64,000 nt of DNA from the IMG/VR virus record IMGVR_UViG_3300016466_000859, positions 1 through 64,000 of that record; one strand, given 5' to 3'. This DNA is from a virus. The translations under genes were made by a program, and so were the position numbers. Below, one piece after another: positions 11,338 through 62,312 of the stretch. Under the pieces are notes generated by a model. It was not told where the DNA came from and made no database searches. It saw only the letters and a program-made list of their open reading frames with translations. The first letter of the stretch is position 1. Every line of letters starts with the position of its first letter.

Positions 11338-11350
11338 GATCTATGATATT

Positions 11351-46221: not shown

Positions 46222-46250
46222 CAAAAAAAGCGGCCCGGCCGCTTTTTTTG
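46222..46250 (+). terminator. Intrinsic terminator closing the structural block
   Basis: CAAAAAAAGCGGC-CCG-GCCGCTTTTTTTG. Confidence 0.85.
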
Positions 46251-46277: not shown

Positions 46278-46592
46278 ATGAGCGACACCAATAAACTAGT
46301 AGAAACTGTGAAGCAGGCCACCGATTATCAGATAAATCGGCGCATCCTCAGGGAAAAAATACTGACTGAGTTGCATGTCACCTATAATGGGGGTATGTTT
46401 TTGGTGACTCGGGATCTCATGAGTTTTTTATCCACGTGGCCTGATAATAGATTATTCATTGAAGATATCTATGAAACTCCCATTGAAGTGGACCGAAATG
46501 AATTATTATCGCAATGCCAACAGCGATATCAGGCTGTAATGAATTCGTGGCACCAACAACATGCCGAATTACGAAAAATTAGGAAACTCTAG
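46278..46592 (+). CDS. Hypothetical protein (first gene of the modification operon)
   Basis: ATG at 46278; 104 aa; overlaps the next gene. Confidence 0.7.
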   Translation: MSDTNKLVETVKQATDYQINRRILREKILTELHVTYNGGMFLVTRDLMSFLSTWPDNRLFIEDIYETPIEVDRNELLSQCQQRYQAVMNSWHQQHAELRKIRKL

Positions 46593-47343
46593 AGGCGCGG
46601 TAATATTCGCCAACAACACCGATACAGTAGATTATCTTTCTATAGCTGAAACGAATGCCAGACTGATAGATCGACATCTAGGAATACCTACGACCATATT
46701 GACCACAGACACACATACTGGAGTCAACAGACGGTACGATGTCACTAATCAACGTGTGATCGAATGGAAAAATTTTGGAAGATCTCAGGCTCTAGACCTC
46801 AGTCCCTACGACGAGACACTGTTAATCGATGCTGATTATCTTGTATTAGATGATTCATTTGCCAAGGTCTTCGATACGCTCGGTGACTATGTGATACCCA
46901 ACAAGAATATCTATGTCACAGATCCTGATGCATGCGAAACCATGGGCGAATACAGCCTACCTTTTGTCTGGGCCACAGCGATATTTTTTAGGAAAACCTG
47001 TCGTGCTCGGGCACTGTTTGATATTGTTAAAATGATAGAAAAAAATTATTCCTATTATCGAACACTCTACAACATCAAGGACGGCAACTATCGCAACGAT
47101 TATGCGTTTGCCATAGCTCATTACGTGACCAATGGCTACGCTATATCTCGACGAGAATTCCTACCTTGGCCAATAATGACGATCCCCGGGGTGCTTGACA
47201 GCATTGATCTCGTCGACGGTAATCTTGTGATACGAACACCAACTCGTGCATATTTGTCTCCAAAACAAAGCATACACATACTCAGTAAAACCTATCTTCA
47301 GTCTACGAGATTTTTAAATTTCACGGAGCAAGCCCTTGCGTAA
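46561..47343 (+). CDS. GT-A fold glycosyltransferase-like protein
   Basis: GAVIFA...DYL.IA, LSPYDETLLIDADYL (DxD), WATAIFF, YRNDYAF. Confidence 0.65.
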   Translation: MPNYEKLGNSRGAVIFANNTDTVDYLSIAETNARLIDRHLGIPTTILTTDTHTGVNRRYDVTNQRVIEWKNFGRSQALDLSPYDETLLIDADYLVLDDSFAKVFDTLGDYVIPNKNIYVTDPDACETMGEYSLPFVWATAIFFRKTCRARALFDIVKMIEKNYSYYRTLYNIKDGNYRNDYAFAIAHYVTNGYAISRREFLPWPIMTIPGVLDSIDLVDGNLVIRTPTRAYLSPKQSIHILSKTYLQSTRFLNFTEQALA

Positions 47344-48202
47344 AAATCCACATCAAGCACAGCAAGGGTTTCTGACAATAGCTCAGAATTCTCCCACTGT
47401 GGACTATCTACGGTTGGCATATCTACAAGCACTAAATATCAAGTACACTCAAAAAAACAATCTTTACGCAGTCATAGTAGATTCAGACACTCACAAGTTG
47501 ATCACAGATCAACATCGTCGAGTATTTGATTTTGTGATTGAATTAGAAGAAGATCAAGCACAACACCAAGATTGGAAACTCAGCAACGAATGGCAGGCTT
47601 TCTGGCTCACTCCTTTCAAAGAGACCATCAAACTAGAGTCTGATTTATTGTTTACTCGCAGCATCGATCATTGGTGGTATGCTCTGCAGCAGAAAGATCT
47701 GGTGTTGAGTCATGGTTGTAAAAATTATTTGCAGGAACCTTCGTTGGCCCGTAAGTATCGTCTTACATTTGATGAAACAGATCTTCCTGACGTCTATAAT
47801 GGTCTCATGTATTTTCGTTTTTCAAAAACTGCCAGTGACTTTTTTCGTCTAGCTAAAAATATTTTTTCGGACTGGACGTCGGTGAGGGATCAATGTTTGA
47901 CGAATTGCAGAGACGAGAATCCAACCACAGATGTTGTTTATGCTTTGGCAGCAGAAATCGTTGGAAGAGAGAATTGCACGATACCCAGCATGGATTTTGT
48001 AAACTTTGTACACATGAAACCGGGCATACAGAATTGGTCAGATTCGCAGAGCTGGCAAGACTATGTGATATCGGAATTTGATTCAGGAATGATACGAGTA
48101 AACAATATCAACCAATATCATCCATTCCACTACCAGGATAAAAGTTTTGCCACGCAAGAAATAATCGAGTACTATGAGCAACGAATTGCCGGCCCTGCTT
48201 GA
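47336..48202 (+). CDS. GT-A fold glycosyltransferase-like protein (paralog)
   Basis: GFLTIAQN...DYLRLA, LTPFKETIKLESDLLF, YNGLMYF, TDVVYALA, FVHMK; TTG start with GGAG. Confidence 0.6.
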   Translation: MRKNPHQAQQGFLTIAQNSPTVDYLRLAYLQALNIKYTQKNNLYAVIVDSDTHKLITDQHRRVFDFVIELEEDQAQHQDWKLSNEWQAFWLTPFKETIKLESDLLFTRSIDHWWYALQQKDLVLSHGCKNYLQEPSLARKYRLTFDETDLPDVYNGLMYFRFSKTASDFFRLAKNIFSDWTSVRDQCLTNCRDENPTTDVVYALAAEIVGRENCTIPSMDFVNFVHMKPGIQNWSDSQSWQDYVISEFDSGMIRVNNINQYHPFHYQDKSFATQEIIEYYEQRIAGPA

Positions 48203-48533
48203 GGCTTTTGGAAATCTTCCATCGGTAGAATCGGCCTCACCCGAGTACCGATTATACTACAACGACGACGGAACTCCGTTGTCAATGAGTTCTGGTGACT
48301 TTCCTGACAGCGGCAAGTACATACAGATTCCTAAGGAAATCTACGATCGGCCCAATTATGCCGCTATGCGAGTAGTCAATGAGAAACTAATTTTTATTGA
48401 GAATGTACTGTACCATCAGCAGAGTCTACAAAAAGGCGGAGATCGTTTTCGCACAGTCAAAGGGCACGCCAATATTTTAGTTGACGAAACATATCAAGGA
48501 GAAACAGAAACATATGGCTTCAAGAATCATTGA
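48174..48533 (+). CDS. Hypothetical protein
   Basis: 119-aa ORF overlapping both neighbours; EYRLYYNDDG motif. Confidence 0.65.
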   Translation: MSNELPALLEAFGNLPSVESASPEYRLYYNDDGTPLSMSSGDFPDSGKYIQIPKEIYDRPNYAAMRVVNEKLIFIENVLYHQQSLQKGGDRFRTVKGHANILVDETYQGETETYGFKNH

Positions 48534-49446
48534 TGTCGCCGACATAGATTGCATCTATCTCAGCTACGACGAGCCACAGAAAGAAGCGTTCTGGATCAAG
48601 ATACAGAACATGGTGCCTTGGGCCCGGCGTGTGGACGGAGTCAAAGGATCGGACGCCGCGCATAAAGCCGCGGCTGCCAAGTCAGACACAGACTTTTTCG
48701 TGCTGATCGACGGCGACAACTTGCCCGATGCCGACTTCTTTAACTTGCAGTTGGCCATCGGCGATGGCGAGGAAGATGCTGCCTTCCGTTGGAAAGCCCG
48801 CAATCACATCAATGGTCTCATGTACGGCAACGGTGGCATGAGCGTGTGGAGCAAACGGTTTGTCGAGGACATGCGCACACACGAAGCGTCAGATGGCACA
48901 GATCGCACAGCAGTGGAGTTCTGTTTCGAACCCAAATACTTTGCCATGCACAACTGCCACTCTACCACTTATCCCAATGGCAGTCCTTACCAGGCCTGGC
49001 GTGCCGGCTTCCGCGAGGGCGTCAAGATGTGTTTGGACAAAGGACGCCGGCCATCCATGCAAGAGTTTGACGACTCGGTGCAACGACGCAACTTCGATCA
49101 TCTCTGTATCTGGCAGAGCGTGGGCCGCGATGTAGAAAACGGCATCTGGGCCATCGCCGGTGCAAGGCTAGGTACTACTATGACCATGATACACGAATGG
49201 GATCATAGGAAGGTACAGGACTTTGACGAACTCAAGTCAATTTGGGAAGATTGTGTCAAAGATCTCGATCCCGAAGAATTGGCCGCCAAGGAAGGTCAAC
49301 TGTTACGCAGCCGTTTAGGCATGCCCATCGCGGAACTGGATGCAGAACAGAGCAGATTCTTCAAGCATCACTATTCCACAGGACACCGCAACTTGGACAT
49401 GATGACCAAAGAAATCGATGTTATCCGTAGGATCGAGGGTTGGTAA
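48514..49446 (+). CDS. Glycosyltransferase-like protein
   Basis: IYLSYDEP, RVDGVKGSDAAHKAAA, VLIDGDN (DxD), NGLMYGNGG; ATG at 48514 with AAGGAG. Confidence 0.6.
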   Translation: MASRIIDVADIDCIYLSYDEPQKEAFWIKIQNMVPWARRVDGVKGSDAAHKAAAAKSDTDFFVLIDGDNLPDADFFNLQLAIGDGEEDAAFRWKARNHINGLMYGNGGMSVWSKRFVEDMRTHEASDGTDRTAVEFCFEPKYFAMHNCHSTTYPNGSPYQAWRAGFREGVKMCLDKGRRPSMQEFDDSVQRRNFDHLCIWQSVGRDVENGIWAIAGARLGTTMTMIHEWDHRKVQDFDELKSIWEDCVKDLDPEELAAKEGQLLRSRLGMPIAELDAEQSRFFKHHYSTGHRNLDMMTKEIDVIRRIEGW

Positions 49447-49685
49447 TGGCACAGGGTTCTCTCTGGAAGATAGTCAAGATCCTTCCCACAGACTACAAGG
49501 ATTATGGTGGCGAAATAGAACGTTGGGCAGACAGCAAAGAAGACTATCCTGACTGCTCATCGGGTTGTAGACATTGGTGGGCTTTAGATGCAGATTGGGG
49601 AGTATGCCGAAATCCTCGCAGTGCCAGGGCCGGGCTGCTGACCTGGGAACACCAGGCTGGATATGATTGCTGGGAACATGATTAA
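49446..49685 (+). CDS. Small Cys/Trp-rich protein
   Basis: TAATG overlap; DCSSGC...DWGVCRNPRS.RAGLLTWEHQAG.DC. Confidence 0.65.
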   Translation: MAQGSLWKIVKILPTDYKDYGGEIERWADSKEDYPDCSSGCRHWWALDADWGVCRNPRSARAGLLTWEHQAGYDCWEHD

Positions 49686-49696
49686 AATTCATCGAA

Positions 49697-51112
49697 ATGG
49701 GAATAATGAATAAAGGTGATGAAGCGGTAGGTACAAAGAGCAAGTTTATGGCTTCAGCCGAGTGGATGCGAGAAAACCTCGGCGAAGGATTCTGCTTGGC
49801 CAAATGGAAACAAGTGAGTCTACACTTGCCCACCGGACTCAACAACTCCTGTTATCATCCTCCGTTGCATCACATTGATCCAGCACCACTCAAAGACAAT
49901 CCTGGCGCCCTGCACAACACCGAGCACAAAAAACAACAACGTGTGATCATGTTGCGAAACGAGCGACCCAGTGAGTGTCAATACTGCTGGAACATCGAAG
50001 ACACCGGCAATCTCAGTGATCGACATTATCGATCCGGAGAACCCTGGGCTGCCGATGACTATGAAGCTATCCGTGCCAGCACTGGCGCCGAAGACTGGAT
50101 TCCCAGTTATGTGGAAGTCAATTTCAACCATGCCTGCAACCTGGCCTGCTCTTACTGTAGTCCGCAGTTCTCCTCGTCTTGGCAAGCGGAAGTAGATAAA
50201 TGGGGAGCTTGGCCTACATCTACTCCGCACAATGCGCCCGAGCACTTCCAAGGACGCAATCGTCCTATCCCACACAGCCAAGAGAATCCCTATGTGGATG
50301 CGTTCTGGGAATGGTGGCCGCAACTGTATCCCCGACTTAAACATTTCCGCATGACCGGCGGTGAGCCACTCATGGATCGCAACACATACCGAGTTTTCGA
50401 TTACGTGTTGGCCCTGCCCAATCCCGAACTACACCTCAATGTCACGTCTAACTTTTCCGTAGAACTCAAATTGTTTGAGAAATATCTTGACTATGTGAAA
50501 CGCTTGTGCGGCACACAGATCGAACACTTCATGCAGTATGTGAGCCTCGACACCGGCGAGCCCCAGCATGCCGAATACATCAGGCACGGACTCAACTTCC
50601 GTCGCATGTGGGATTATGTGCATCGTTACTTGGATGAGATCCCTTATCGCAACAGCCTCACATTCATCATTACCATGAACAATCTGTCAGTGCTGGGCAT
50701 ACAACGGCAGTTGGAATGGATATTGGATCTGCGCCGTATGTATAGCAAGACCTATCAGCGTGTGTGGTTTGACACACCCTTGTTGCGGCAGCCTCGGTGG
50801 CAGAGCCTACAGATACTGCCCCCGGTCTATGCCGATCGTCTCGAGCGTGTGGCAGACTGGATGGAACTCAACATGGAAAGGCCCGAGGATCCCTTCCATG
50901 GCTTCAAAGACTACGAAGTGCAAAGGATGCGTCGCGACATCGCTTGGATGCGCGAAGGACAGAAACTGGATCACGATTACATCGTAGCACAGCGAGCCGA
51001 CTTCTATCGTTTCTTCAACGAACACGACAAGCGCCGCAGCACTGATTTTGAGCGCACCTTCCCTGAGATGCGTGAATTCTGGCAGGAGTGTAGATACCAT
51101 GCCCAACGATAA
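49697..51112 (+). CDS. Radical SAM protein, N-terminal Twitch-like domain
   Basis: FCLAKW...SCYHP...CQYCW; CNLACSYC; TGGEPLM. Confidence 0.92.
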   Translation: MGIMNKGDEAVGTKSKFMASAEWMRENLGEGFCLAKWKQVSLHLPTGLNNSCYHPPLHHIDPAPLKDNPGALHNTEHKKQQRVIMLRNERPSECQYCWNIEDTGNLSDRHYRSGEPWAADDYEAIRASTGAEDWIPSYVEVNFNHACNLACSYCSPQFSSSWQAEVDKWGAWPTSTPHNAPEHFQGRNRPIPHSQENPYVDAFWEWWPQLYPRLKHFRMTGGEPLMDRNTYRVFDYVLALPNPELHLNVTSNFSVELKLFEKYLDYVKRLCGTQIEHFMQYVSLDTGEPQHAEYIRHGLNFRRMWDYVHRYLDEIPYRNSLTFIITMNNLSVLGIQRQLEWILDLRRMYSKTYQRVWFDTPLLRQPRWQSLQILPPVYADRLERVADWMELNMERPEDPFHGFKDYEVQRMRRDIAWMREGQKLDHDYIVAQRADFYRFFNEHDKRRSTDFERTFPEMREFWQECRYHAQR

Positions 51113-52184
51113 ATTCTGTGTAAGACCTTTCATGCACAGTCTCGTTGACACTGCCGGCAGGTTCCGAGTATGTTGCCGTATTGATTCAAAATCCGGATAT
51201 AACATCAATAAACACACAGTCAAGGAATGGTGGAACAGCGACTATCTCAATGACATACGTGATCGCATGCGCCAAGGCAAAGATTTACCCGAGTGCTGGA
51301 GATGCCACAAACAAGAAGAATACGGTGCCACAAGTTTTCGAGAAACCAGCAATCAAGAATGGCCCGATATCGGCGATGTAGTAGATTTCCCCATTGATTG
51401 GGAGATACAAATCACCAATCTTTGTAATTTAAAATGCATGATGTGTAATCCTTGGTCCAGCAGCCAAGTCCTAGTTGAGGAAAACAAAATATTCGAAGTC
51501 AACTGGGACCAAAAAAATTATGATTGGGATGAATCATCGGCAGATAAAATCAAAGCTATATTTGAGTCAGGGAACAGCTTCGTGATACGCGGAGGGGAAC
51601 CCTTTATGGTTCCGTGGCTCAAAAAACTGGTGAGAGAAATTTCCAGTAGAAAAAGTTTTTTGATCAATACAAATGCCACTCGATTTGATAGAGAATGGTT
51701 TGATATTTTATCGGGGCATGATATAAGAATGAGTGTCAGCATAGATGCGGTCGGAGATCTAAATCACTATATTCGCTATCCCAGCAAATGGCAAGATATA
51801 TTGGATAATTTAGATGTGATGAGAAAGTTACCTGGAGCCAATGTGTTCTTGAACACCTGTGTCCAAAATTTAAATGTGCTACATTTAGATAAACTGATAA
51901 ACTGGGCATTCTCGCAAGGTTTATTTGTAAATCTCGATGTATTAACTAGTCCAAAACACTTTCAGCCTTCGTGTTTGCCCGTAGAATTAGCAGAGTCGGC
52001 CAAGAATAGACTGTTATCTGTTGACGATTCGAACTCTCGCGGGCTTAACGGAATAGTTAACCTTTTGTCTAGTCCAGATACTTCACATTGGGATGAATTT
52101 GTCAAGCATGTTCAGATTAGAGATAGACATCGTGGTGTAAATGTAGTAAACTATGTACCCGAGATGGAGCCATATTTTGCCTAG
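51099..52184 (+). CDS. Radical SAM protein, N-terminal Twitch-like domain
   Basis: FCVRPF...VCC...CWRC; CNLKCMMC; RGGEPF; INTNAT; ATG at 51099 with AGGAG. Confidence 0.92.
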   Translation: MPNDKFCVRPFMHSLVDTAGRFRVCCRIDSKSGYNINKHTVKEWWNSDYLNDIRDRMRQGKDLPECWRCHKQEEYGATSFRETSNQEWPDIGDVVDFPIDWEIQITNLCNLKCMMCNPWSSSQVLVEENKIFEVNWDQKNYDWDESSADKIKAIFESGNSFVIRGGEPFMVPWLKKLVREISSRKSFLINTNATRFDREWFDILSGHDIRMSVSIDAVGDLNHYIRYPSKWQDILDNLDVMRKLPGANVFLNTCVQNLNVLHLDKLINWAFSQGLFVNLDVLTSPKHFQPSCLPVELAESAKNRLLSVDDSNSRGLNGIVNLLSSPDTSHWDEFVKHVQIRDRHRGVNVVNYVPEMEPYFA

Positions 52185-53529
52185 ATCACCCAACGAAACA
52201 GATTTAGAATTCCGCAAGCGAGTACTTGATTCTAAGAGCGCCAGCTTCTGCGGAGCCAAGTGGTACAACGCTACCATATGGTTGGGCTCAGGCATGACCA
52301 CGAGCTGCCATCACCCTCCGGCACATTTTGTTCCTGTGGAAGCCATACAGCGTAATCCCAAGGCCTTGCACAACAGTGACGAAAAGAAAAACGATCGGGC
52401 GATGATGCAACGGGGAGAACGTCCACCCGGCTGTGAATACTGCTGGAAGATCGAAGACATGGGTCGCGATGCTGTTTCAGATCGTGTCTATAAAAGCGTA
52501 ATCTACACCGACGAGGAACTCAATGAAGCATATCTACTACCCACCGCTGCGGACGCAAATCTACGCACTCTCGAAATCAGTTTCGACCGCACTTGCCAAT
52601 TGGCTTGTAGCTACTGTAATCCTGCTTTCTCTAGTACATGGGTTAAGGACATTCGAACCCGAGGGCCTTATATCGACCTCGTTAGTGATGGTAGGAATCA
52701 CTTCACTCATGATCACGCTAGTGCTCAGCTTTATCGATATGGTGAAGTCAATCCGTATATTGAGGCATTTTTCCGCTGGTGGGAAACCGACCTACATAAG
52801 ACGCTTAGAGAGCTACGAATCACCGGTGGCGAACCACTCATGTCCGGCTACACCTGGCAGCTCATTGACTGGTTCAAACAGAACCGTGGAAAGAGCTCCA
52901 CACGGCTAGCCATCAATTCAAACTTGGCCATGGATTCGGAAAAGATCCAAGAACTCCTAGACGCTTGTGGAGGCATTGAGTTGGATATCTATACTTCCAA
53001 CGAGGCCCTACATTCGCAGGCCGAATACATCAGAGACGGACTCCAATGGGATCAATGGCAGACCAACATGCGTTTGTTGGCCTCCAGTGGTAGGCTGCGT
53101 GGCTTACACAACATGTGTACTATAAATGCCCTGTGCTTGGAAAGCCTGCCCGAGTTCCTGGACTTCCTGATAGAGATGAAACAGGAGTTTGGCAGAGACT
53201 TTCCCAATTTTACGTTAAATATCTTGCGTTTTCCGTCGTTCCAAAGCCCCTTGGTGTTGCCCGACGATATCCGTGAGCATCACAAAGGGAGACTGGTTGA
53301 GTGGATGGTCCGACACAAAGGCTACAACTATCTACATCAGCATGAAATCAATCATGTACTAAGATTGATCGATTATCTAGATGTAGTCAAAACTCCGCAC
53401 CGTGAGACTTTTGAGCGCCCGGCCTTGCACAACGACTTCCGCAAGTTCTACGAGCAATACGATCAGCGTAGGGGTAAAAATTTCTCTGAGACATTTCCCG
53501 GTCTAGCCGATTGGTATACAAAACTATGA
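52177..53529 (+). CDS. Radical SAM protein, N-terminal Twitch-like domain
   Basis: FCGAKW...SCHHP...CEYCW; CQLACSYC; TGGEPLM; probable TTG start at 52177 after GGAG. Confidence 0.92.
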   Translation: MPRSPNETDLEFRKRVLDSKSASFCGAKWYNATIWLGSGMTTSCHHPPAHFVPVEAIQRNPKALHNSDEKKNDRAMMQRGERPPGCEYCWKIEDMGRDAVSDRVYKSVIYTDEELNEAYLLPTAADANLRTLEISFDRTCQLACSYCNPAFSSTWVKDIRTRGPYIDLVSDGRNHFTHDHASAQLYRYGEVNPYIEAFFRWWETDLHKTLRELRITGGEPLMSGYTWQLIDWFKQNRGKSSTRLAINSNLAMDSEKIQELLDACGGIELDIYTSNEALHSQAEYIRDGLQWDQWQTNMRLLASSGRLRGLHNMCTINALCLESLPEFLDFLIEMKQEFGRDFPNFTLNILRFPSFQSPLVLPDDIREHHKGRLVEWMVRHKGYNYLHQHEINHVLRLIDYLDVVKTPHRETFERPALHNDFRKFYEQYDQRRGKNFSETFPGLADWYTKL

Positions 53530-54857
53530 GTGACACCAAAGAATTCTACAACAAGGGCTACGACTACAACAGTCGTGCTCCTTATTTCGCAGATCGAAAA
53601 GATCTTACTCCCGAGGAATGGCGCCGATTGACCGAGAGCGATACATTCTGTATGTTGCCATGGGTACACATGCATGCCTTTCCTGATGGACGTGCTTATC
53701 CTTGCTGCCTCAGCGACTACTGGCATCCTGTAGGAGACCTGCGCAAGAACACCATGGAGGAAGTCTGGAACCAGGACGCTTATCGGACCATGCGCAAAAA
53801 CATGTTACAGGACAAACCCTGTAAAGAATGTACCAAGTGCTACGAGCAAGAGAAGGCCGGATTCTTCAGCATGAGATATGATGCTAACAGGAACTACGGG
53901 CATCATATCGCAGAAGTAGATCAAACTGCTCCCGACGGCGAGCATCCTGACTTCAAGATACGCTATTGGGACGTAAGGTTCAGCAACCTTTGTAATATGC
54001 GATGTCGCAGTTGTGGTCCCATCTTTAGTTCGAACTGGTTCAACGATCATGTCAAGATGTATGGCGTAGTTCCTGATGTGCTCAAACGTCCCATGGCCCG
54101 GGTGGAATACACCACCGGCGACGAAGATGGCATGCTGGCACAGATGGAGCCGCATGTTCCTTATCTCGAACAAGTCTACTTCGCGGGCGGCGAACCTTTG
54201 ATCATGAAAGAGCATTACTACATGCTGGAGAAGTTGATTGAAGCCGGTAAGACTGATGTAAGACTGATCTACAACACCAACTTCTCAGAACTACGCTACA
54301 AAGACAAGCATGTGTTTGAGTTCTGGAAACACTTTAAGACAGTCAACGTGGGCGCCAGCTTGGATGCTTCGGGCACTAGAGCCGAACTCATGCGCAAAGG
54401 CACCCAATGGTCACAGACTGTTGATAATCGCCGCAGGATGATGGAAGAAGTGCCGCACGTGGATTTCTACGTCAGCGCCACGGTATCATCGATGAACGTG
54501 CTACACGTCTTAGACTTCCATCGTGAGTGGAGTGACCTGGGATTGATACAACCCAAGGATTTCAATGTCAACATCTGTCAAAGTCCCGAGTGGTATAGGA
54601 TCGACATCTTCCCCGAAGAGTTCAAGAAATCAGTGATCGAACCCGCGTACCGTCGACACATTGAATGGTTGGATCCACAAGATACATTGCGCCGTGCCAC
54701 TACCGGATTCGAAAGCGCCATCAACTTTATGTTGAGCACCAATAACAGCCATTTGCTTCCACGCTGGCGAGAAGAAACAGACAAGTTGGACCATGTCCGT
54801 GGCGAAGATTTCTGGGCCACTTTCCCTGAACTAGGAGTGTTACGTGACGCTACCTAA
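53526..54857 (+). CDS. Radical SAM protein, N-terminal Twitch-like domain
   Basis: FCMLPW...PCC...CTKC; CNMRCRSC; FAGGEPLI; YNTNFS; ATGA overlap. Confidence 0.93.
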   Translation: MSDTKEFYNKGYDYNSRAPYFADRKDLTPEEWRRLTESDTFCMLPWVHMHAFPDGRAYPCCLSDYWHPVGDLRKNTMEEVWNQDAYRTMRKNMLQDKPCKECTKCYEQEKAGFFSMRYDANRNYGHHIAEVDQTAPDGEHPDFKIRYWDVRFSNLCNMRCRSCGPIFSSNWFNDHVKMYGVVPDVLKRPMARVEYTTGDEDGMLAQMEPHVPYLEQVYFAGGEPLIMKEHYYMLEKLIEAGKTDVRLIYNTNFSELRYKDKHVFEFWKHFKTVNVGASLDASGTRAELMRKGTQWSQTVDNRRRMMEEVPHVDFYVSATVSSMNVLHVLDFHREWSDLGLIQPKDFNVNICQSPEWYRIDIFPEEFKKSVIEPAYRRHIEWLDPQDTLRRATTGFESAINFMLSTNNSHLLPRWREETDKLDHVRGEDFWATFPELGVLRDAT

Positions 54858-56058
54858 GACTATATGTATGCTACCTTGGATGAGCATCGAGACTTCGCCA
54901 ATGGGAACAGCGAGACCGTGCTGCTTGGCTGACGAAGAAATCACAGATCCCAACGGAGAAAAATACGATCTCAATGTCACAACTTTGCGCGAGATCTATG
55001 ACAGCGAATACATGCAGAATCTACGACGTCAGTTCCGGCAGGGCAAAAAGCCTGCTACCTGTAATCGTTGCTGGGAAGAAGAGGCCGCCGGCCGCACAAG
55101 CAAACGTATACACAGCCAAGTACGACTCAAAGAATTGTACAAACAAGTGGATTGGGAGAACGATAAGCCAGACCAACTGTGGTTTGTGGATCTCAAACTC
55201 GGAAACATCTGCAATCTCAAATGTCGCATCTGCGGATCCTGGAGTTCTAGCAAGTGGGCCGAAGAAGAGATGAACTACTTGCCCAAGACCGTGGACAAGA
55301 AAACACACATCGCTTACACATGGCTCCGGCAAGGACAATGGCCCAGGAAGACCGAGACGTTCTGGGACGACCTGCGCAGCCTGCTGCCTAACATACGCTA
55401 CTTTGAGTTCACCGGCGGGGAACCATGGCTGATCCAGGAACACATTGACCTTCTCAAGTTTGCAGCTGACTCTGGTGACAGCCATCACATCGATATACAC
55501 TACAACACCAATGCCACCCAGTGGCCCAATGATCTCGTTGGCGTATGGAAACACTTTGGTCGTGTAGACATCGCATTCAGCATCGACAACGTGGGTGAGA
55601 GATTTGAATATGAACGTTTTCCTGCCAATTGGATCAAAGCCAACGAGATCGTAGACGCTGTGCATGACTTACAGAAAGCCAACACCAATATCACTACCCA
55701 ACTGTGTTTCACACTGAACATACAGAACGTCTACTACCTCGACGAGTTGCTGGCTTGGGCCGACACCAAAGGTTTTGGTAATGTTTATTTTAATATGTTG
55801 CACAGTCCCAGCAGGATGAGCATACAGTCAATGACACCACAGGCGCAGGAGTTGGTGATCAATAAACTGCAAAGCGTCCAGTGGCGATCCGAATACCAGC
55901 GTGAAGTCGACAATGTCATCAACTTCATACGCAACGGATCGGGCAGCGACGGACGAGAATTCTGTAGGCTCATGAAGCAGACTGATGCTTATCGAAAACA
56001 GGATTTCCGTGTAACACACGCCGAGATTGCCGAGGCCATGGGCTATGAAGAAACCTGA
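54844..56058 (+). CDS. Radical SAM protein, N-terminal Twitch-like domain
   Basis: ICMLPW...PCC...CNRCW; CNLKCRIC; FTGGEPWL; YNTNAT; GTG start with AGGAG. Confidence 0.93.
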   Translation: MTLPKTICMLPWMSIETSPMGTARPCCLADEEITDPNGEKYDLNVTTLREIYDSEYMQNLRRQFRQGKKPATCNRCWEEEAAGRTSKRIHSQVRLKELYKQVDWENDKPDQLWFVDLKLGNICNLKCRICGSWSSSKWAEEEMNYLPKTVDKKTHIAYTWLRQGQWPRKTETFWDDLRSLLPNIRYFEFTGGEPWLIQEHIDLLKFAADSGDSHHIDIHYNTNATQWPNDLVGVWKHFGRVDIAFSIDNVGERFEYERFPANWIKANEIVDAVHDLQKANTNITTQLCFTLNIQNVYYLDELLAWADTKGFGNVYFNMLHSPSRMSIQSMTPQAQELVINKLQSVQWRSEYQREVDNVINFIRNGSGSDGREFCRLMKQTDAYRKQDFRVTHAEIAEAMGYEET

Positions 56059-57349
56059 ACATCGCCCCGATACCTTGTGCATGGCTCCATGGACCCACAC
56101 ATACTTGAGTCCACAGACCGAGCGTCGTATGTGCTGTGCCAGTCGTGAGCCTGCACAGAACTTCCAGCAATATATTGACACGGCCGCAGGTACCGGCCGA
56201 TACATTCCCATCACTTTGGAAGAGCATTGGAACGGCGAGCACATGCGAAGCGTGCGCCGCAGGATGATGAAGGGTGAGACTTTGCCTGAGTGCGATGTAT
56301 GTAACAGCAAGCTCTTGAACACAGATGTTTACCGTAGCTATTTTAATCATCTTTTCGGACATAAGTACAATAGCATATGGGACTTGACAGATGAGTCGGG
56401 TCACACCACTATGCGGCCCGTGAGTTGGGATTACAGGTTTTCCAACTTGTGTAACTTCAAATGTAGAACCTGTGGAGACATGTTAAGCAGTGCTTGGGAA
56501 AGCGAGCAACGCCAACACAACATGATCGATTGGACCAACCCCAAAAATCAGTGGATGGTTCCTGATATCAAAAAACAGATTGAACGTTTTCAAAATGAAC
56601 AGGTAGAGGCCGAGTTTTCACAGGCCGTTGAGGAACACCGAGTCGAGGAAGTGTACTGGGTAGGCGGCGAGCCGCTCATGTACGAACAGCATTGGCGATA
56701 CATGAAACGTATCGTGGACTTGGGAGATGGACAAAATGTTTACGCTAGATACAACACAAATCTTAGTCGCGTCGACTATCGCGGCATCAATTTGTATAGG
56801 GATATTCTTAGTAGGTTACGGGATTGGCAAATCTGTGCAAGCATCGACGGATCGGGCCGAATTGGAGAGTATATTCGAACAGGTCTTGATTTTGGTAAAT
56901 GGCTTGAGAACTTCAAGCAAGGAATTGAGATCAGTAGTCACCGCCGCCAGATGCGTCTTGACTTCACTCTTACACTCCCGGGTCTCTTCGAAGTTCGACG
57001 GATGACACAGCTCGGGCGGGAACTGGGTGTTGACACGTTGGCCAAAGTCATATTCAGTTTCTCGCCTGACATCATACTCAGCCCCTCGGCATTGCCCAGA
57101 GAGCTATTGGAACCTTGGTTAGACGAACTCATACCTGACACACATGGGGCTATGCAGGACTTATTGGTACAACTAAAATCCCGCCCCACGTTCCAGGAAC
57201 AGTGGCCCGATCAATGGCAAGCAGGTCTTGCAAAAGGCAAAGCCCGTGTGTTAAAATTAGAAGAAATAAGGAATGATCGATTTACCATGGACGACATACT
57301 CCGTGAGCGTCCGGCGATACACCAATGGTGGAGAAACATAGATGTCTGA
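56045..57349 (+). CDS. Radical SAM protein, N-terminal Twitch-like domain
   Basis: LCMAPW...MCC...CDVC; CNFKCRTC; WVGGEPLM; YNTNLS. Confidence 0.93.
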   Translation: MKKPEHRPDTLCMAPWTHTYLSPQTERRMCCASREPAQNFQQYIDTAAGTGRYIPITLEEHWNGEHMRSVRRRMMKGETLPECDVCNSKLLNTDVYRSYFNHLFGHKYNSIWDLTDESGHTTMRPVSWDYRFSNLCNFKCRTCGDMLSSAWESEQRQHNMIDWTNPKNQWMVPDIKKQIERFQNEQVEAEFSQAVEEHRVEEVYWVGGEPLMYEQHWRYMKRIVDLGDGQNVYARYNTNLSRVDYRGINLYRDILSRLRDWQICASIDGSGRIGEYIRTGLDFGKWLENFKQGIEISSHRRQMRLDFTLTLPGLFEVRRMTQLGRELGVDTLAKVIFSFSPDIILSPSALPRELLEPWLDELIPDTHGAMQDLLVQLKSRPTFQEQWPDQWQAGLAKGKARVLKLEEIRNDRFTMDDILRERPAIHQWWRNIDV

Positions 57350-57539
57350 ATTTTTACAAACTCTATCTCGTATGTGGAATACCGTACTGACTAATATCGC
57401 AAACACCAGTCTTGAAACTTGGATGATATTATTAGGTATATTTGCGATCTGGGCGGTGTTTGCTTTTTTCATTGTCAGAGATCATCTTAAAAATCCTGGA
57501 AAATACAACGATAGTGATAAATTTATACCACCTTATTAA
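57342..57539 (+). CDS. Small single-pass membrane protein
   Basis: 65 aa with TM segment WMILLGIFAIWAVFAFFIV; overlaps the upstream stop and abuts the next start. Confidence 0.6.
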   Translation: MSEFLQTLSRMWNTVLTNIANTSLETWMILLGIFAIWAVFAFFIVRDHLKNPGKYNDSDKFIPPY

Positions 57540-58610
57540 ATGAAAAAAATCAAAGTGGTGTTGAGAGATCCTCTCAACAAAAAACACGAATTTGACTATA
57601 ATATAGAAGTCGATCAACACGCCATGGCCGTAAGATGGTATGACGCCTTGCGGGATCTTGTACGCAATAATAATTACCTAGAAAAGAACTTTTGTTTTTT
57701 GGGATTTCCCGACACGGCCAGAGACCTTGGATATCTCTGCAAAGAATTAAACTGGGCCAAAGATCGTATCAATGAGTTTTTTGATGATTACAAAATCGAA
57801 GAAGACTATTCTCTCGACACCATGCGGCACGGATTAGATCCCAATCAAAATTTGATGAATGTGTTGCACAATCATTTTGAGGTATTGCAGGGAACAGTAT
57901 GGGGACTCAGTGATTATTACAAACGAGCTGATTACGAAACCAAGTTTGCTATAAGGCAATTAAACAATATCTGCCACGAAGCAGAAAGCCTTATGCTGAG
58001 CCAACGCAAGCAGGTTGAAGCACCAGAATGGGTGCGTCCGAGCCAGATCACTACTTTCCTCAACTCTCCGAGATTTGAATACCCAGCAGAGCATAAAAAA
58101 ATATTCGATGAGACCCGATACGACAGGACGTTTGGCACGGTATATCAGCACTGGACACAGATCGGAAAAACTCTCTATGAAGTCTACATCGACGAAGGAG
58201 GAAAAGATATAGATCGTGCCACGTGCGAAGCTATCACACATTTAAGATATTACTCCGGAGAATTTGATATCGAATGGGCACGAGATGTCACTTATGGCGG
58301 CGAATATCCTTGGCACACAAAAAGAATGACTGGATTCCGAGAATGGTTGTTACGCAACGGATTTGACCTCGACAATGTTGAATATAATTACGGTTACCAC
58401 AGTGTGGGTCAGGTCAATCTCAAAGAAAGTTTTGGCACCGATGATTATCTAGTTGTCTGGAGTGTGTTAGGACAGCACCTTGATATCTACAAAATAGAAA
58501 TGGAAGATATCACGACTGTCTACGATTATTGTTGGACCGACACCGACTATTATCAACAACAGATTGAAAGATTGCGACCGGGTTATGACTATAGTAGCAG
58601 GAGGTTGTAG
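57540..58610 (+). CDS. Hypothetical protein
   Basis: 356-aa ORF in the operon; His-rich motifs LHNHFE, LNNICHEAE. Confidence 0.75.
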   Translation: MKKIKVVLRDPLNKKHEFDYNIEVDQHAMAVRWYDALRDLVRNNNYLEKNFCFLGFPDTARDLGYLCKELNWAKDRINEFFDDYKIEEDYSLDTMRHGLDPNQNLMNVLHNHFEVLQGTVWGLSDYYKRADYETKFAIRQLNNICHEAESLMLSQRKQVEAPEWVRPSQITTFLNSPRFEYPAEHKKIFDETRYDRTFGTVYQHWTQIGKTLYEVYIDEGGKDIDRATCEAITHLRYYSGEFDIEWARDVTYGGEYPWHTKRMTGFREWLLRNGFDLDNVEYNYGYHSVGQVNLKESFGTDDYLVVWSVLGQHLDIYKIEMEDITTVYDYCWTDTDYYQQQIERLRPGYDYSSRRL

Positions 58611-59157
58611 TTTCGTCTGGGGCAGTGAATTGCCCGATAGCCCACACGGTGGGGTCAACGGATACAGCAGGTCCACTTTTCCGGCCCTGTTAGCCAAAGA
58701 CAGTTATGTGTGTTTGGCCTATCCGGGCATAGGAAATCGTGAAATATCAAAACGTGTCAGAGATTATCTAGTCCGTGCGAGAACAGATCAATTGATCGTG
58801 ATGGTATGCTGGACTTGGCCCGGCAGAGATGGAACTATAAACAGCAACGATGCTATATTGGATCTACAGAGGTATCTCGAACACTACAAGATACCCTATA
58901 TTTTCACCTGCGCAGATAATTGTATAAAAACAGACAATGCAGAGATAAAGTGGGAAGAATGGTTTTGGTTTCCACCCGGTGACCCGCCTTACCAGACATC
59001 GACCCCGAGAGGTTTTTACCAGTGGGCTCGCGAAAATAAATATCTAGTAGGTCCCGAACATCATCCGCTAATTGAAGCGCATCAAGATGCTGCCAAACTA
59101 ATCCAAGGAAAATTCGATGAATTGGTTAAAAAGATTGATAAATCGCGTCAAAATTGA
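58585..59157 (+). CDS. SGNH/GDSL-like protein
   Basis: GGCSFVWG block I, AYPGIGN, C-terminal HHPLIEAH; ATG at 58585. Confidence 0.55.
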   Translation: MTIVAGGCSFVWGSELPDSPHGGVNGYSRSTFPALLAKDSYVCLAYPGIGNREISKRVRDYLVRARTDQLIVMVCWTWPGRDGTINSNDAILDLQRYLEHYKIPYIFTCADNCIKTDNAEIKWEEWFWFPPGDPPYQTSTPRGFYQWARENKYLVGPEHHPLIEAHQDAAKLIQGKFDELVKKIDKSRQN

Positions 59158-59218
59158 AATACAATATCGCAAGAAACTCAAAGAGATGCGCAAGCGAGAT
59201 CCGTTTATCTACAAATGA
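59117..59218 (+). CDS. Hidden 33-aa basic peptide
   Basis: MNWLKRLINRVKIEIQYRKKLKEMRKRDPFIYK; AAGGA SD at 59105-59109; its stop forms the ATGA overlap with the next gene. Confidence 0.6.
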   Translation: MNWLKRLINRVKIEIQYRKKLKEMRKRDPFIYK

Positions 59219-59769
59219 TATTGGTAAATGGTGACAGCTTCACAGCCGGCGAAGAAAGCACCGTGGCATGGCCAGACCTTGTTGCTGATACAGTAAATAT
59301 AGCTACACCAGGAGCCGGCAACGATCATATAGTTTCCAGCACGATCGTACATATTGAAACTTATGGGAACATCGATCGTGCTATAATAGCTTGGACTACT
59401 CCACATCGCATAACAGTCAGTGGAAAGCATCTCACTCCCACTAGCCAAAAAAAATATGGTAAGCTAGTCGACGAAGTGTTTTGCGATTGGGATGAATCGT
59501 GGGCTTGGCGACAGTTTCATGCTTCTGTGGCAGCATTGCATGGTTATCTTGAGCACAAAAGAATACCACATTTCTTTGTGAGCACGTTTGGCATACCAGC
59601 TAATACCATCCGCGAATGTATATATTGGATGGAGTGGGGCACCGAAGGTATGATAGAATGGATGGGCGACTGCCCAAAAGGTCCCGGTGGGCACCCGCTG
59701 GAACTTGGACATCAACGAATAGCAGGAAAAATCAATGAGTATATTAGGAGTATCGGCTGGGTTTCATGA
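59215..59769 (+). CDS. SGNH/GDSL-like protein
   Basis: VNGDSFTAG, ATPGAGND, GGHPLELGH. Confidence 0.6.
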   Translation: MILVNGDSFTAGEESTVAWPDLVADTVNIATPGAGNDHIVSSTIVHIETYGNIDRAIIAWTTPHRITVSGKHLTPTSQKKYGKLVDEVFCDWDESWAWRQFHASVAALHGYLEHKRIPHFFVSTFGIPANTIRECIYWMEWGTEGMIEWMGDCPKGPGGHPLELGHQRIAGKINEYIRSIGWVS

Positions 59770-61264
59770 TGCCGCAGTGAGTCTAGTAGACAGCTCGGGG
59801 AATATTTTATTCGCCGGACACAGCGAACGTTACAGCAAAATTAAAAACGACGCCAATATCTGTTCAACATTGTTGGCAGACATACCTACCAAGGTAAATC
59901 ATATAGCATATTATGAAAAGCCTTGGTTGAAACAATTACGTCAGCTCTATTCAGGGCAGGGCGTTGAGTGGAAAAAGATAGATACCGAGACTATACTCAG
60001 GGCACAGCTCGGAGAGTGGATCACTCAACAAATACCCGGTATCAATATATTCCAGGAAATTATGTTCGATGATGACATTCCATCGATCAGCAGCCACCGT
60101 CATCATCTCAGCCATGCCGCGGCCGGCTTTCAAACTAGTCCTTATCAAGATGCCACTGTGGTAGTCTGTGACGCCATTGGCGAGTGGGACACAACATCGA
60201 TCTATCATGCCTACTACGATGATCTCGGTATCGCTAGATATAAAAAACTTTGGTCACAGAAATATCCACACAGTCTGGGCATGTTCTATTCGGCGTTTAC
60301 TAAACGTGTGGGACTACGACCCATGGACGAAGAATACATACTCATGGGCATGGCGGCCTGGGGTAAGAATATTTGGTTTAATCGTATCTACGATGAACAA
60401 ATCAAGGACATCGCCAACCTCACATTCAAGAACAATCTGCACCTGGGAGTTGACGACAATTACCTTGATATTGCCACCAACGAAGATATTGCTGCCAGTG
60501 TACAAGAGATCACTGAGTGGGCTGTTTGTAGGATCATGGAACGGGCTCGCACTTTAGGGAAAAGTGAAAATCTAGTTTATATGGGAGGAGTAGCCCTCAA
60601 CTGTCTTGCCAATCGGCTCTTGGGCAAGTACTATTCCAATATCTGGATCATGCCCAATCCCGGCGATGCTGGAAGTAGTTTAGGAGCGGCTGCTTTGGCG
60701 TACAAACGAAAATTAAATTGGCAAGATGCCTATCTCGGACATGTAATTTCGGGACCTTATCCGGTCAAAGGCTTGCTCGATGAACTATTATCAGCTAAAA
60801 TAGTAGGCGTGGCGTCTGGTGCCGCCGAGTTTGGACCACGAGCATTGGGAAATCGTAGCCTCCTAGCTGATCCCAGAGAAAAAGATATAAAGGATCGTGT
60901 CAATGAAATTAAACAACGTCAACGATTTAGACCCTTTGCCCCAGTCATACTGGCTGAGATGGTGGATGACTACTTTGATATGCCTCCTGGCTGGGTGGAT
61001 AGCGATTATATGCAAGTTGTCGCTCGGTGCCGTCATCCTGAGCTTTACCCTGCTATATGTCATGTTGATGGCACCAGCCGAGTACAGACGGTACCAAAGG
61101 ATTCAAGATCGGGCATCCGACAACTCTTAGAGCAATGGTATGTGATGACTGGGTGTCCTATGCTGTTAAATACATCATTGAACATCCGCGGAGAGCCAAT
61201 GGTCAACGATCGAGTTGATGCCGATCGGTTCGAGAAACTTTATGGAATAAAGGTGATATCATGA
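59735..61264 (+). CDS. Carbamoyltransferase (NodU/CmcH/TobZ family)
   Basis: GFHDAAVSL, HHLSHAA, DAIGEW, MGMAAWG, GGVALNC, GDAGSSLGA, EFGPRALGNRS, RFRPFAP, HVDGTSRVQTV, LLNTSLN. Confidence 0.95.
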   Translation: MSILGVSAGFHDAAVSLVDSSGNILFAGHSERYSKIKNDANICSTLLADIPTKVNHIAYYEKPWLKQLRQLYSGQGVEWKKIDTETILRAQLGEWITQQIPGINIFQEIMFDDDIPSISSHRHHLSHAAAGFQTSPYQDATVVVCDAIGEWDTTSIYHAYYDDLGIARYKKLWSQKYPHSLGMFYSAFTKRVGLRPMDEEYILMGMAAWGKNIWFNRIYDEQIKDIANLTFKNNLHLGVDDNYLDIATNEDIAASVQEITEWAVCRIMERARTLGKSENLVYMGGVALNCLANRLLGKYYSNIWIMPNPGDAGSSLGAAALAYKRKLNWQDAYLGHVISGPYPVKGLLDELLSAKIVGVASGAAEFGPRALGNRSLLADPREKDIKDRVNEIKQRQRFRPFAPVILAEMVDDYFDMPPGWVDSDYMQVVARCRHPELYPAICHVDGTSRVQTVPKDSRSGIRQLLEQWYVMTGCPMLLNTSLNIRGEPMVNDRVDADRFEKLYGIKVIS

Positions 61265-62097
61265 CACAGCGTATTTTAATAATGGGTCTACCCGGTGCCG
61301 GTAAAACTACATTAGCACAAACCTTGAAAAAGTATATTGAAGAAAATTCAGCATTTTTCCAGCCGCAGGCCGAAGCCCTGTACGGCAGTTATGCCACAGT
61401 GGAGTGGTTCAACGCCGATGAGGTAAGAAAGCGATTCAATGACTGGGATTTTAGCCACGAAGGACGCATACGTCAAAGCCACAGGATGCGCGAGCTGGCC
61501 GATAAAAGCAGTGCAGATTTTGTCATTTGCGATTTTGTGGCTCCACTGATTGAGATGCGACACAATTACAAGGCCGATTGGACGGTATGGGTTGACACTA
61601 TCGATCAAGGTCGGTTTGAAGATACCAATAGAATGTTCGCAGAACCCGATGTTTATGATTTTCGCATCACGGAAAAAAATGCAGAGAAATGGGCGGCATT
61701 TATAGGCGAGCACATATTAGAAAATCGACGGAGACCAGTGTTTGACTGGCGTCGAGAAACCGTGCAGATGTTGGGTCGTTGGCAACCTTGGCACCCGGGC
61801 CATCGTGCTTTGTTTGAAAGGCTGATTGCACGCACAGGACAGGTAGTGATACAGATAAGAGATGTTCAAGGCTGGCAAGGCAGCAATCCCTTTGATGTTA
61901 ACCAAGTCAAAGGATTTATTAAAAGAGACCTTGATCCACTCTATCAAGGTCAATTTGAAATAATGCTGGTACCCAATATCGTACACATTGGTTGGGGAAG
62001 AGGTGTTGGATATACCAGTGGCGAAGAAACATTTGACGAAAGCATCACGGACATCAGTGCCACAAAAATTCGTAAAGCCATGGGCTATGACAAATGA
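61261..62097 (+). CDS. Fusion of adenylyl-sulfate-kinase-like P-loop domain and HxGH nucleotidyltransferase domain
   Basis: GLPGAGKT, NADEVR, DFS.EGR.RQ..R; C-terminal LGRWQPWHPGH...ISATKIR. Confidence 0.75.
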   Translation: MTQRILIMGLPGAGKTTLAQTLKKYIEENSAFFQPQAEALYGSYATVEWFNADEVRKRFNDWDFSHEGRIRQSHRMRELADKSSADFVICDFVAPLIEMRHNYKADWTVWVDTIDQGRFEDTNRMFAEPDVYDFRITEKNAEKWAAFIGEHILENRRRPVFDWRRETVQMLGRWQPWHPGHRALFERLIARTGQVVIQIRDVQGWQGSNPFDVNQVKGFIKRDLDPLYQGQFEIMLVPNIVHIGWGRGVGYTSGEETFDESITDISATKIRKAMGYDK

Positions 62098-62312
62098 TCG
62101 ACACCAAGAAAAGAAGTCTAGTAAAGACCTTGAGCTGGAGGTTAACCGGTAGCTTTGCTACCTTCTTGATATCTTATCTCATTTCGGGAAACTTTGCGAT
62201 CGCTTCGTCGATTGCAGCCGTGCAGATAGTGGCAAACACGATACTTTACTATCTACATGAAAGGATCTGGGATCGCATCAATTGGGGCAGGAAAGGCACC
62301 AGTTTAAATTAG
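62094..62312 (+). CDS. DUF2061-like small membrane protein
   Basis: RSLVKTLSWR, YYLHERIW.RI.WG. Confidence 0.8.
   Translation: MIDTKKRSLVKTLSWRLTGSFATFLISYLISGNFAIASSIAAVQIVANTILYYLHERIWDRINWGRKGTSLN

Follow-up and report, generated by a model that had tools for sequence, protein, structure and literature searches.

A candidate glycan building-and-tailoring operon rich in N-terminal-twitch radical SAM enzymes in giant freshwater myoviruses

Virion glycosylation systems, such as those of mycobacteriophages and of the chlorovirus PBCV-1, place glycosyltransferase (GT) genes beside genes for structural proteins, and the same arrangement is found in a 16-kb operon (positions 46278-62312) of a giant myovirus. 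The operon lies in the first 64 kb (hereafter the window) of the 130,947-bp virus record IMGVR_UViG_3300016466_000859 from IMG/VR, for which CheckV estimates a completeness of 37%, with ~63% of the genome outside the record. To our knowledge, the mycobacteriophage and PBCV-1 systems comprise transferases only, with no radical S-adenosylmethionine (SAM), SGNH or carbamoyl modules. One GT-like protein of the operon, g05 (gene numbers as in Table 1), matches in fold PBCV-1 A64R, a chlorovirus capsid-glycan transferase (probability 1.00); for the present system, virion glycosylation is a prediction. Capsid and tail-tube glycans of mycobacteriophages are cited in PMC12619734.

The six radical SAM enzymes of the operon share with the NCBIfam family NF033640 (N_Twi_rSAM, "twitch domain-containing radical SAM protein") an N-terminal Cys cluster domain followed by the CX3CX2C and GGEP motifs. 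That family is a catalogue entry; the phage instead has five or six divergent subfamilies (16-29% identity) as a fixed set. The profile of the N-terminal domain aligns (E 2e-4) with the auxiliary-cluster twitch domain of BtrN (2-deoxy-scyllo-inosamine dehydrogenase), and the context is rich in sugar enzymes. However, the twitch domain is C-terminal in BtrN and N-terminal in the operon enzymes, so the domain order is permuted, and the radical SAM cores are not specifically related. O-antigen and capsule clusters (ABC-transporter type) of Bacteroidota carry the same radical SAM family near GDSL, GT2, GT4, sugar-nucleotide and PhyH genes, but have one radical SAM gene and the exporter Wzt where the phage has six or more and no exporter. 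In NodU/TobZ and DUF5989 sets, the carbamoyltransferase has as neighbours a GDSL/SGNH protein and a very small protein with PF(I/V)Y at its end, as it does in the phage. The phage carbamoyltransferase that acts on 5-hydroxymethylcytosine (5hmC; PMC8670742) belongs to the same two-domain family as g17. That system travels with an Asp177 thymidylate synthase homologue and with MazG-like and deaminase genes (Yang et al. 2021, PMC8670742), whereas the homologue here has Asn177 and a dihydrofolate reductase (DHFR) gene beside it, and the operon has sugar-enzyme neighbours; by the thymidylate synthase residue, judged from the ~37% of the genome in the record, the operon does not fit the 5hmC system.

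We found no literature on the function of N-terminal-twitch (N-twitch) radical SAM enzymes or NF033640, on these phage operons, or on jumbo phages with both radical SAM and carbamoyltransferase genes. The paper on the Ralstonia phage RsoM2USA, discussed below, does not mention the operon-type genes, and a survey gives only a tally, 12 radical SAM genes, for a marine T4-like genome (PMC5332604). The statement of a first-pass annotation, made from the DNA alone, that a phage pathway with so many radical SAM enzymes is uncharacterised agrees with our search, which returned no published study of the pathway.

The operon is a tailoring gene cluster made of known enzyme classes. We propose that it encodes a glycan building-and-tailoring pathway, kept by a clade of giant freshwater myoviruses behind their tail-fibre genes, and give this interpretation about an even chance of being correct. 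The genes form a single co-oriented unit that starts after a strong terminator. This is evident from the terminator upstream, which separates the tail-fibre block from the operon, from the lack of any comparable terminator within 46278-62312, and from the junctions between the 19 + strand open reading frames (ORFs; those of at least 65 aa counted), 15 of 18 of which overlap by 1-35 nt; one pair abuts, and two gaps of 11 and 57 nt remain, the larger being occupied by a further ORF of 33 aa. Genes for the baseplate hub, the baseplate wedge, a 4543-aa virion protein and four tail-fibre-like proteins precede the operon on the + strand, from 16 to 46 kb. The tightly joined 16-kb operon that had been described directly after the tail block is thus present as annotated.

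Related loci were recovered on 55 IMG/VR contigs in one viral-contig scan. The order tail fibre, x45, g01-g05, g07, g09-g12, g14, (g15), 33-aa peptide gene, g16, g17 and g18 recurs in about 40 of the 55; relatives differ at the g08 position and between g11 and g12, and the carbamoyltransferase is absent from three covered loci. A more distant group (35-44% identity) has g02, g03, g05, g07 and g10 likewise positioned after the fibre gene. All of the operon genes are under purifying selection, with ratios of nonsynonymous to synonymous substitution rates (dN/dS), computed against the two closest relatives (L010 and L051), of 0.02-0.13 for the conserved genes and 0.02-0.21 over all. Relaxed selection, which the first-pass annotation had considered fatal to a pathway of this kind, is therefore not the case, and the recurrence of the gene order together with these ratios indicates that the operon is not a chance grouping. 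The nearest relative alternates by gene (g09 is 95% identical in L010 versus 83% in L051, and g01-g04 are nearer L051), and this gene-by-gene switching of identity suggests that recombination has occurred within the operon.

The nearest cultured relative for the operon genes is RsoM2USA (344 kb), in which the operon is split into two reduced modules ~90 kb apart. One (RsoM2USA_349 to _353) follows a tail-fibre-like gene and consists of g02-like, g03-like and g05-like genes, a g07-type radical SAM gene and a second g05-like gene. The other (RsoM2USA_199 to _203) consists of an SGNH gene, a g09-type radical SAM gene, a second SGNH gene, the peptide gene, a third SGNH gene and the carbamoyltransferase gene. 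The g09 protein is 50% identical to RsoM2USA_202, and g17 is 44% identical to RsoM2USA_199. The set of radical SAM, SGNH, peptide and carbamoyltransferase genes found in RsoM2USA also occurs in L074, and the marine virus AG-345-D19 has radical SAM and carbamoyltransferase genes. Contigs assigned to metagenome-assembled genomes (MAGs) of Polynucleobacter, Legionellales and Haliscomenobacter carry g09/g10 (L066) or the operon (L067, L069 and L070) at 50-93% identity, and L069 also carries tail-fibre genes. These look like phage contigs mis-binned into MAGs, and the Polynucleobacter-binned contig may hint at the phage host.

The count of six radical SAM genes in the operon holds, since all six (g07-g12) are members of NF033640, with scores of 280.7-396 bits against a cut-off of 170 bits and alignments from model positions 1-3 to 388-398. 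Three further radical SAM genes in the record also score far above the cut-off. Four invariant Cys residues precede the radical SAM motif and place the enzymes among twitch-domain proteins, and in four of the six the Pfam SPASM domain lies N-terminal to Radical_SAM. Across seven paralogues compared, divergent as they are, the four N-terminal Cys, CX3CX2C and GGEP are all invariant. The CX3CX2C motif is kept in all 214 orthologues checked, with GGEP missing from one; for g07, both motifs are retained in 37/37 orthologues. In g07 and g09, which make up a subclass, another residue replaces the second Cys of the CC pair to give C-(Y/H)-H-P-P. Homologues of g10 number >7000 at E <= 1e-10, and true orthologues of g08 were found at 7 loci only.

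The nine radical SAM genes that had been counted across the window were also recovered, eight of them of the N-twitch type. The two N-twitch genes outside the operon lie at 7304-8611 (-) and 11351-12949 (-), and a radical SAM gene without the twitch domain lies at 8601-9641 (-). Within 7304-12949 (-), these genes are interleaved with genes for SbcC/Rad50-like proteins and Mre11-like phosphoesterases. The protein encoded at 11351-12949 (-) has an N-terminal extension of ~130 aa (...RI.F..D...LN.IDISNFFV...) without a Pfam family, and the same extension is present in about 15 of the 150 best family representatives, including P0128, P0138 and P0145.

Outside the phage, the radical SAM family comprises 10068 clusters at 50% identity (1485 with E below 1e-30) and is commonest in genomes of Bdellovibrionota, Bacteroidota and Elusimicrobiota, often as tandem arrays. 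A Bacteriovoracaceae chromosome (L078) encodes eight copies, in an array flanked by obg and rplU. In a phylogenetic tree, g07, g09 and g12 each pair with a different gene of the bacterial arrays (g07 with L078_12859, support 99; g09 in a clade with L073 and L078, support 98; g12 as sister to L078_7401, support 100), and g10 and g11 do likewise, less tightly. The clade of g11 includes the window paralogue at 11351-12949 (-), L078_11208 and L074_2332. Each of the five core paralogues thus has its own orthologue in arrays of Bdellovibrio-type bacteria and, on this phylogenetic grouping, the five are old subfamilies that travel as a set rather than recent duplicates.

A Crocinitomicaceae locus (L080) encodes a single copy amid GT2, UDP-glucose dehydrogenase, epimerase, GT4, a GDSL protein, PhyH dioxygenases and Wzt, and several of the neighbour families turn up again in 5 to 9 further loci, mainly of Bacteroidota. 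Among 128 bacterial neighbour proteins are ten PhyH, five GT1, four GT2 and two carbamoyltransferases, and further radical SAM proteins and methyltransferases are also among the commonest families. Ten long homologues were examined, and these include fusions to TPR repeats (six), ankyrin repeats (one) and a GT2 domain (one). In the Elusimicrobia MAG MJ-2014_bin-0981, N-twitch radical SAM genes occur on at least 15 contigs (L088, L138 and 13 more), and on some of these six to eight copies lie in tandem, all ~40% identical to g10. This expansion is of a different style from the phage set.

We identified three GT-like proteins, as previously noted, each by a different route. The g03 profile matches structures of glycogenin-1 (E 8e-6, positions 6-114). 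Its paralogue g02 was assigned by hhalign to the g03 family (98.9%, E 1.6e-17); g03 has one invariant Asp (D103) where g02 has an invariant D-x-D. The GT8 family of Pfam (PF01501) was matched weakly (E 0.0018) and by one g03 orthologue only. The modelled g05 structure has a GT-A fold, with Foldseek matches to RmlT, hyaluronan synthase, PBCV-1 A64R and SunS (E 3e-4 to 4e-3, probability 0.84-1.0); TM-scores are low (0.26-0.42), and the assignment is at the fold level only. The g05 gene is the best conserved outside the radical SAM set (dN/dS 0.02-0.04).

Proteins g15 and g16, previously described as an SGNH pair, belong to the SGNH/GDSL superfamily. In an alignment of 26 sequences G6, S8, H160 and H166 are invariant and the GxSND and ExxH blocks are conserved along with GDSF, and the GDSL structure 4rsh is matched (E 2e-4). 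By hhalign, g16 also matches a Pfam DUF6071 protein in L074 (98.8%), the only connection that came out when unassigned proteins encoded beside the bacterial arrays were compared with the phage families. The annotation of g17 as a carbamoyltransferase is upheld by both of its Pfam domains (E 1e-36 and 4e-49; cut-offs 24 bits for Carbam_trans_N and 27 bits for Carbam_trans_C), which place it in the NodU/TobZ family, and g17 is below the NodU equivalog (136 bits; cut-off 1000). The g18 protein had been labelled an APS (adenosine 5'-phosphosulfate) kinase fusion. It is a P-loop kinase fusion, but the APS label is weak: APS_kinase of Pfam scores 28.8 bits (cut-off 21.1) alongside ten other P-loop families, and the APS kinase equivalog TIGR00455 scores 21.6 bits against a cut-off of 138.7, a score that does not place g18 in the PAPS synthase/APS kinase group. 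Its C-terminal 110 aa resemble small HxGH nucleotidyltransferases, unlike a sulfurylase. In many relatives, the two halves of g18 are encoded as separate genes. The last gene, g19, encodes a DUF2061 protein. In two relatives (P0272 and P0273), DUF2061 and an SGNH domain of the g16 type form one protein, which links part of the system with the membrane. We considered DUF2061 as a partner of an APS kinase and rejected this, as the longer forms are fused to the SGNH domain and not to the kinase. A second DUF2061-like frame, 30-37% identical to P0272 and P0273, lies at 93507-93701 (-) of the record.

The gene in the 57-nt gap was absent from the gene list of the first-pass annotation. It encodes a 33-aa micropeptide, is preceded by AAGGAA 8 nt upstream of its ATG, and its stop codon overlaps the start of g16 (ATGA). 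Every one of the 42 related loci with coverage of this position has the peptide. Its 27 distinct sequences all agree at 8 positions (W3, Y17 and the tail R-D-P-F-I-Y). The downstream neighbour of the gene is a g16-type SGNH gene in 31 loci and a carbamoyltransferase gene in four (35/42). The deposited annotation of RsoM2USA has no gene between RsoM2USA_201 and RsoM2USA_200, where a frame (L001:14014-14136, ~125891-126013 of the record, - strand) encodes a counterpart ending in ...KIRDQIRKQDPFIYK. At two bacterial loci (L121 and L136), a true DUF5989 protein (78 and 67 bits) that ends in APFIYSLF or TPFVYTLF flanks the carbamoyltransferase beside the radical SAM gene. The DUF5989 model (PF19451) did not match the phage peptide in any of three records scanned (that of the window, RsoM2USA and L046). 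DUF5989 proteins have a membrane helix, which the phage peptide lacks, and the two are alike only in position, in a basic N-terminal part and in the PF(I/V)Y tail.

The gene island runs on past 62312, beyond the boundary previously drawn. A convergent gene is followed by a 742-aa gene that matches the g05 family (hhalign 97.9%), then by a seventh N-twitch radical SAM gene and, on the opposite strand, DegT and NDP-sugar (nucleoside diphosphate sugar) epimerase/dehydratase genes. The epimerase/dehydratase and DegT aminotransferase genes, identified with Pfam, lie 4.5 kb downstream of the operon. The first-pass annotation had proposed looking in the rest of the genome for NDP-sugar and dCMP hydroxymethylase genes; the former are represented by this epimerase/dehydratase, and no dCMP hydroxymethylase was identified among the annotated ORFs of the 131-kb record (~37% of the genome). 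The only thymidylate synthase homologue in the 131-kb record lies 7.5 kb from the operon and has GVPFNIASY (Asn177), PPCH (His147) and an adjacent DHFR gene. These residues and this neighbour mark it as an ordinary dUMP enzyme, not a dCMP hydroxymethylase.

In the proposed glycan pathway, g02, g03 and g05 would transfer sugars from nucleotide sugars to an acceptor in the cytoplasm. The five or six N-twitch radical SAM enzymes, from different old subfamilies, would make separate radical edits of the sugar or a precursor, the precedents being oxidation, epimerisation, dehydration or C-C bond formation after C-H abstraction. The two SGNH enzymes may attach or remove acyl groups, the carbamoyltransferase would O-carbamoylate a hydroxyl, probably together with the 33-aa PFIYK peptide, and the kinase-nucleotidyltransferase may activate a building block as a nucleotide derivative. 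The chemical steps, their order and the target are thus predictions, made from gene families, conservation, co-occurrence and selection that are observed directly. As to the acceptor, we have a slight preference for a virion protein, for example the tail fibres, because the operon has a fixed position, all of its enzymes look cytoplasmic, and no flippase or exporter is encoded.

The glycan interpretation draws on the co-occurrence of the transferase, SGNH and carbamoyltransferase classes with the radical SAM family in phages and in bacteria. Outside phages, the link is provided by the L080 polysaccharide (Wzt) cluster and by the homologue fused to GT2, and additional support comes from the DegT, epimerase/dehydratase, further GT-A domain and seventh radical SAM gene just downstream. 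An assembly line for a tailored glycan, as the first-pass annotation had envisaged, is the best-supported reading, with two elements of that proposal left without support. Sulfation had been deduced from what is a weak P-loop match, and no ATP sulfurylase or sulfotransferase was found; DNA as the target is disfavoured by the Asn177/His147 thymidylate synthase beside DHFR. The suggestion that the sugar is oxidised or epimerised by BtrN-like chemistry is an analogy only, because the resemblance is limited to the twitch domain.

Several observations weigh against a glycan product. We know of no member of NF033640 with a known substrate or reaction. SPASM/twitch radical SAM enzymes act more often on peptides, and the TPR and ankyrin repeats fused to long homologues usually bind proteins. 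The solved structure nearest to the radical SAM core, 8vpo, appears among the citations of a paper on RiPP (ribosomally synthesised and post-translationally modified peptide) cyclopropyl synthases. Single-sequence Pfam searches returned no GT family for g02, g03 or g05, so that the GT assignments fall below Pfam thresholds, and no GT gene lies beside the L078 array. The ~90-kb separation in RsoM2USA implies that the GT and carbamoyltransferase modules need not serve one product. With regard to the acceptor, the membrane link through DUF2061-SGNH proteins fits a host-envelope target as well as the virion.

The radical SAM set may instead act on a polypeptide that the transferases decorate, as in mycofactocin or glycocins, an explanation that we consider unlikely on balance, but with a serious claim. 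A virion protein is one candidate for this polypeptide; another is the 33-aa PFIYK peptide, as precursor or scaffold. NCBIfam side matches are to the peptide maturases that make up most twitch/SPASM enzymes, the repeat fusions and the L078 array without a GT neighbour are consistent with a polypeptide substrate, and the fold match of g05 extends to SunS, a peptide S-glycosyltransferase; general Pfam, PHROG and NCBIfam scans, however, showed no peptidase, exporter or RRE-like (RiPP recognition element) domain, no direct search for RREs having been made. The micropeptide is more ambiguous. Its tail is invariant, Tyr included, across the 42 covered loci, and in L062 its gene lies between two radical SAM genes in a locus without a carbamoyltransferase, yet in 35 of the 42 it directly precedes SGNH or carbamoyltransferase genes, its bacterial counterparts are DUF5989 proteins that flank carbamoyltransferases, and the L078 and L073 arrays, which lack a carbamoyltransferase, have no such peptide. 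Neither g06 nor g13, the remaining small ORFs, is conserved. A quite improbable variant is that the five to six radical SAM subfamilies, together with the transferases and the carbamoyltransferase, use the peptide as scaffold or precursor and build a glycosylated peptide-derived small molecule or cofactor on its C-terminal F-I-Y-K, in the manner of mycofactocin or PQQ. If true, the phage would encode a RiPP-like product that predatory Bdellovibrio-type bacteria share.

Alternatively, the genes may amount to two or more independent modules that are transcribed together rather than to a single pathway. One module would have the GTs and the g07-type radical SAM enzyme and the other the SGNH proteins, peptide, carbamoyltransferase and g09-type radical SAM enzyme, and unrelated auxiliaries may have been added to them, for example the kinase-nucleotidyltransferase for nucleotide or NAD salvage. 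We regard this as rather unlikely. The two distant modules of RsoM2USA point in this direction, as do the variable g08 and g11-g12 slots, the three loci without a carbamoyltransferase, the weak matches of the g18 halves to NMN (nicotinamide mononucleotide) adenylyltransferase and the signs of recombination between L010- and L051-like sequences, but both modules occur in one terminator-free operon in the same order in ~40 contigs, and in bacteria, too, the five radical SAM subfamilies are found together as a set. Hypermodification of DNA or nucleotides, in which the carbamoyltransferase, kinase and transferases would decorate a hydroxymethylated base to give 5-carbamoyloxymethylcytosine or glycosylated bases, appears very improbable. 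It has a published precedent in the 5hmC carbamoyltransferase, but in the same study carbamoyltransferases on unmodified contigs are flanked by, for example, group 1 glycosyltransferases (PMC8670742), a context closer to that found here. A P-loop kinase is present and a thymidylate synthase homologue lies nearby, but the latter is of the ordinary dUMP type, and no dCMP deaminase or nucleotide hydroxymethylase is present among the annotated ORFs of the record, which covers ~37% of the genome.

The remaining genes of the island could not be assigned to families (Table 1). Single-sequence Pfam and PHROG searches with ten non-radical-SAM proteins matched phrog_1903 only, and g01 and g04 had no match in either database. 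A PDB profile search and Foldseek gave nothing for g14, the ESM Atlas gave no usable match, and its VIA Z of ~8 to cyclophilin-like barrels is within the noise range. We rejected g06 and g13 as RiPP precursors because of their lack of conservation. The convergent gene beyond the operon had no match in Pfam (14 homologues included), PHROG or PDB profiles; its stretch ...TE...HLTEKIFKP... is reminiscent of GT10 fucosyltransferases, an unsupported resemblance. Upstream, the 4543-aa protein is encoded by one ORF (25222-38853, +) between the baseplate wedge gene and the fibre genes.

Table 1. Features of the operon and its borders (window coordinates; AF2, AlphaFold2; pLDDT, predicted local distance difference test).
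Feature	Position	Strand	Description	Evidence or conservation
Terminator	46222..46250	.	Intrinsic, bidirectional; splits tail-fibre block from operon	13-bp stem, T runs on both strands
g01	46278..46592	+	104 aa, conserved first gene	In 37 related loci; dN/dS 0.07
g02	46561..47343	+	GT8-like GT-A glycosyltransferase	D90-x-D92 invariant
g03	47336..48202	+	GT8-like (glycogenin-like) glycosyltransferase	phrog_1903
g04	48174..48533	+	119 aa	Conserved in 29 loci, 26-91% identity
g05	48514..49446	+	GT-A fold glycosyltransferase	AF2 model pLDDT 84.7; D66-G67-D68 invariant
g06	49446..49685	+	79-aa Cys-rich ORF, lineage-specific	Only in L051, closest relative
g07	49697..51112	+	N-twitch radical SAM, C-x-H-P-P twitch subfamily	NF033640 300 bits
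g08	51099..52184	+	N-twitch radical SAM, variable slot	NF033640 281 bits
g09	52153..53529	+	N-twitch radical SAM, C-H-H-P-P subfamily	NF033640 295 bits
g10	53526..54857	+	N-twitch radical SAM, most canonical of set	NF033640 396 bits
g11	54844..56058	+	N-twitch radical SAM	NF033640 336 bits
g12	56045..57349	+	N-twitch radical SAM	NF033640 283 bits
g13	57342..57539	+	65-aa ORF, one hydrophobic helix, poorly conserved	Only in L051 and L010; dN/dS 0.21
g14	57540..58610	+	356 aa, conserved	AF2 model pLDDT 86.9
g15	58585..59157	+	SGNH-type protein	GGCSF here, GGDSF in relatives
Micropeptide gene	59117..59218	+	33 aa	Basic helix and tail R-D-P-F-I-Y-K
g16	59215..59769	+	SGNH-type protein	GDSF, GAGND, ELGH
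g17	59735..61264	+	NodU/TobZ-family O-carbamoyltransferase	PF02543 127 bits, PF16861 167 bits
g18	61261..62097	+	P-loop kinase fused to HxGH/ISAT nucleotidyltransferase	Pfam/NCBIfam scores
g19	62094..62312	+	DUF2061 small membrane protein	PF09834 77 bits
Convergent gene	62278..63411	-	377 aa	Paralogues inside operon in L016, L023, L040 and L045
742-aa gene	63410..64000 (to record 65638)	+	Start in window	C-terminal part g05-like GT-A

The clade that carries the operon is very common in freshwater metagenomes, as the >7000 close homologues of one gene indicate, and devotes at least 16 kb to the radical SAM family. Because both modules exist in reduced form in RsoM2USA, a cultured phage, bench work can address the question now. 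Solving the product would give a chemistry to the whole enzyme family, and would reveal either a new type of virion or host-surface glycan made by radical chemistry or a new peptide-derived product.

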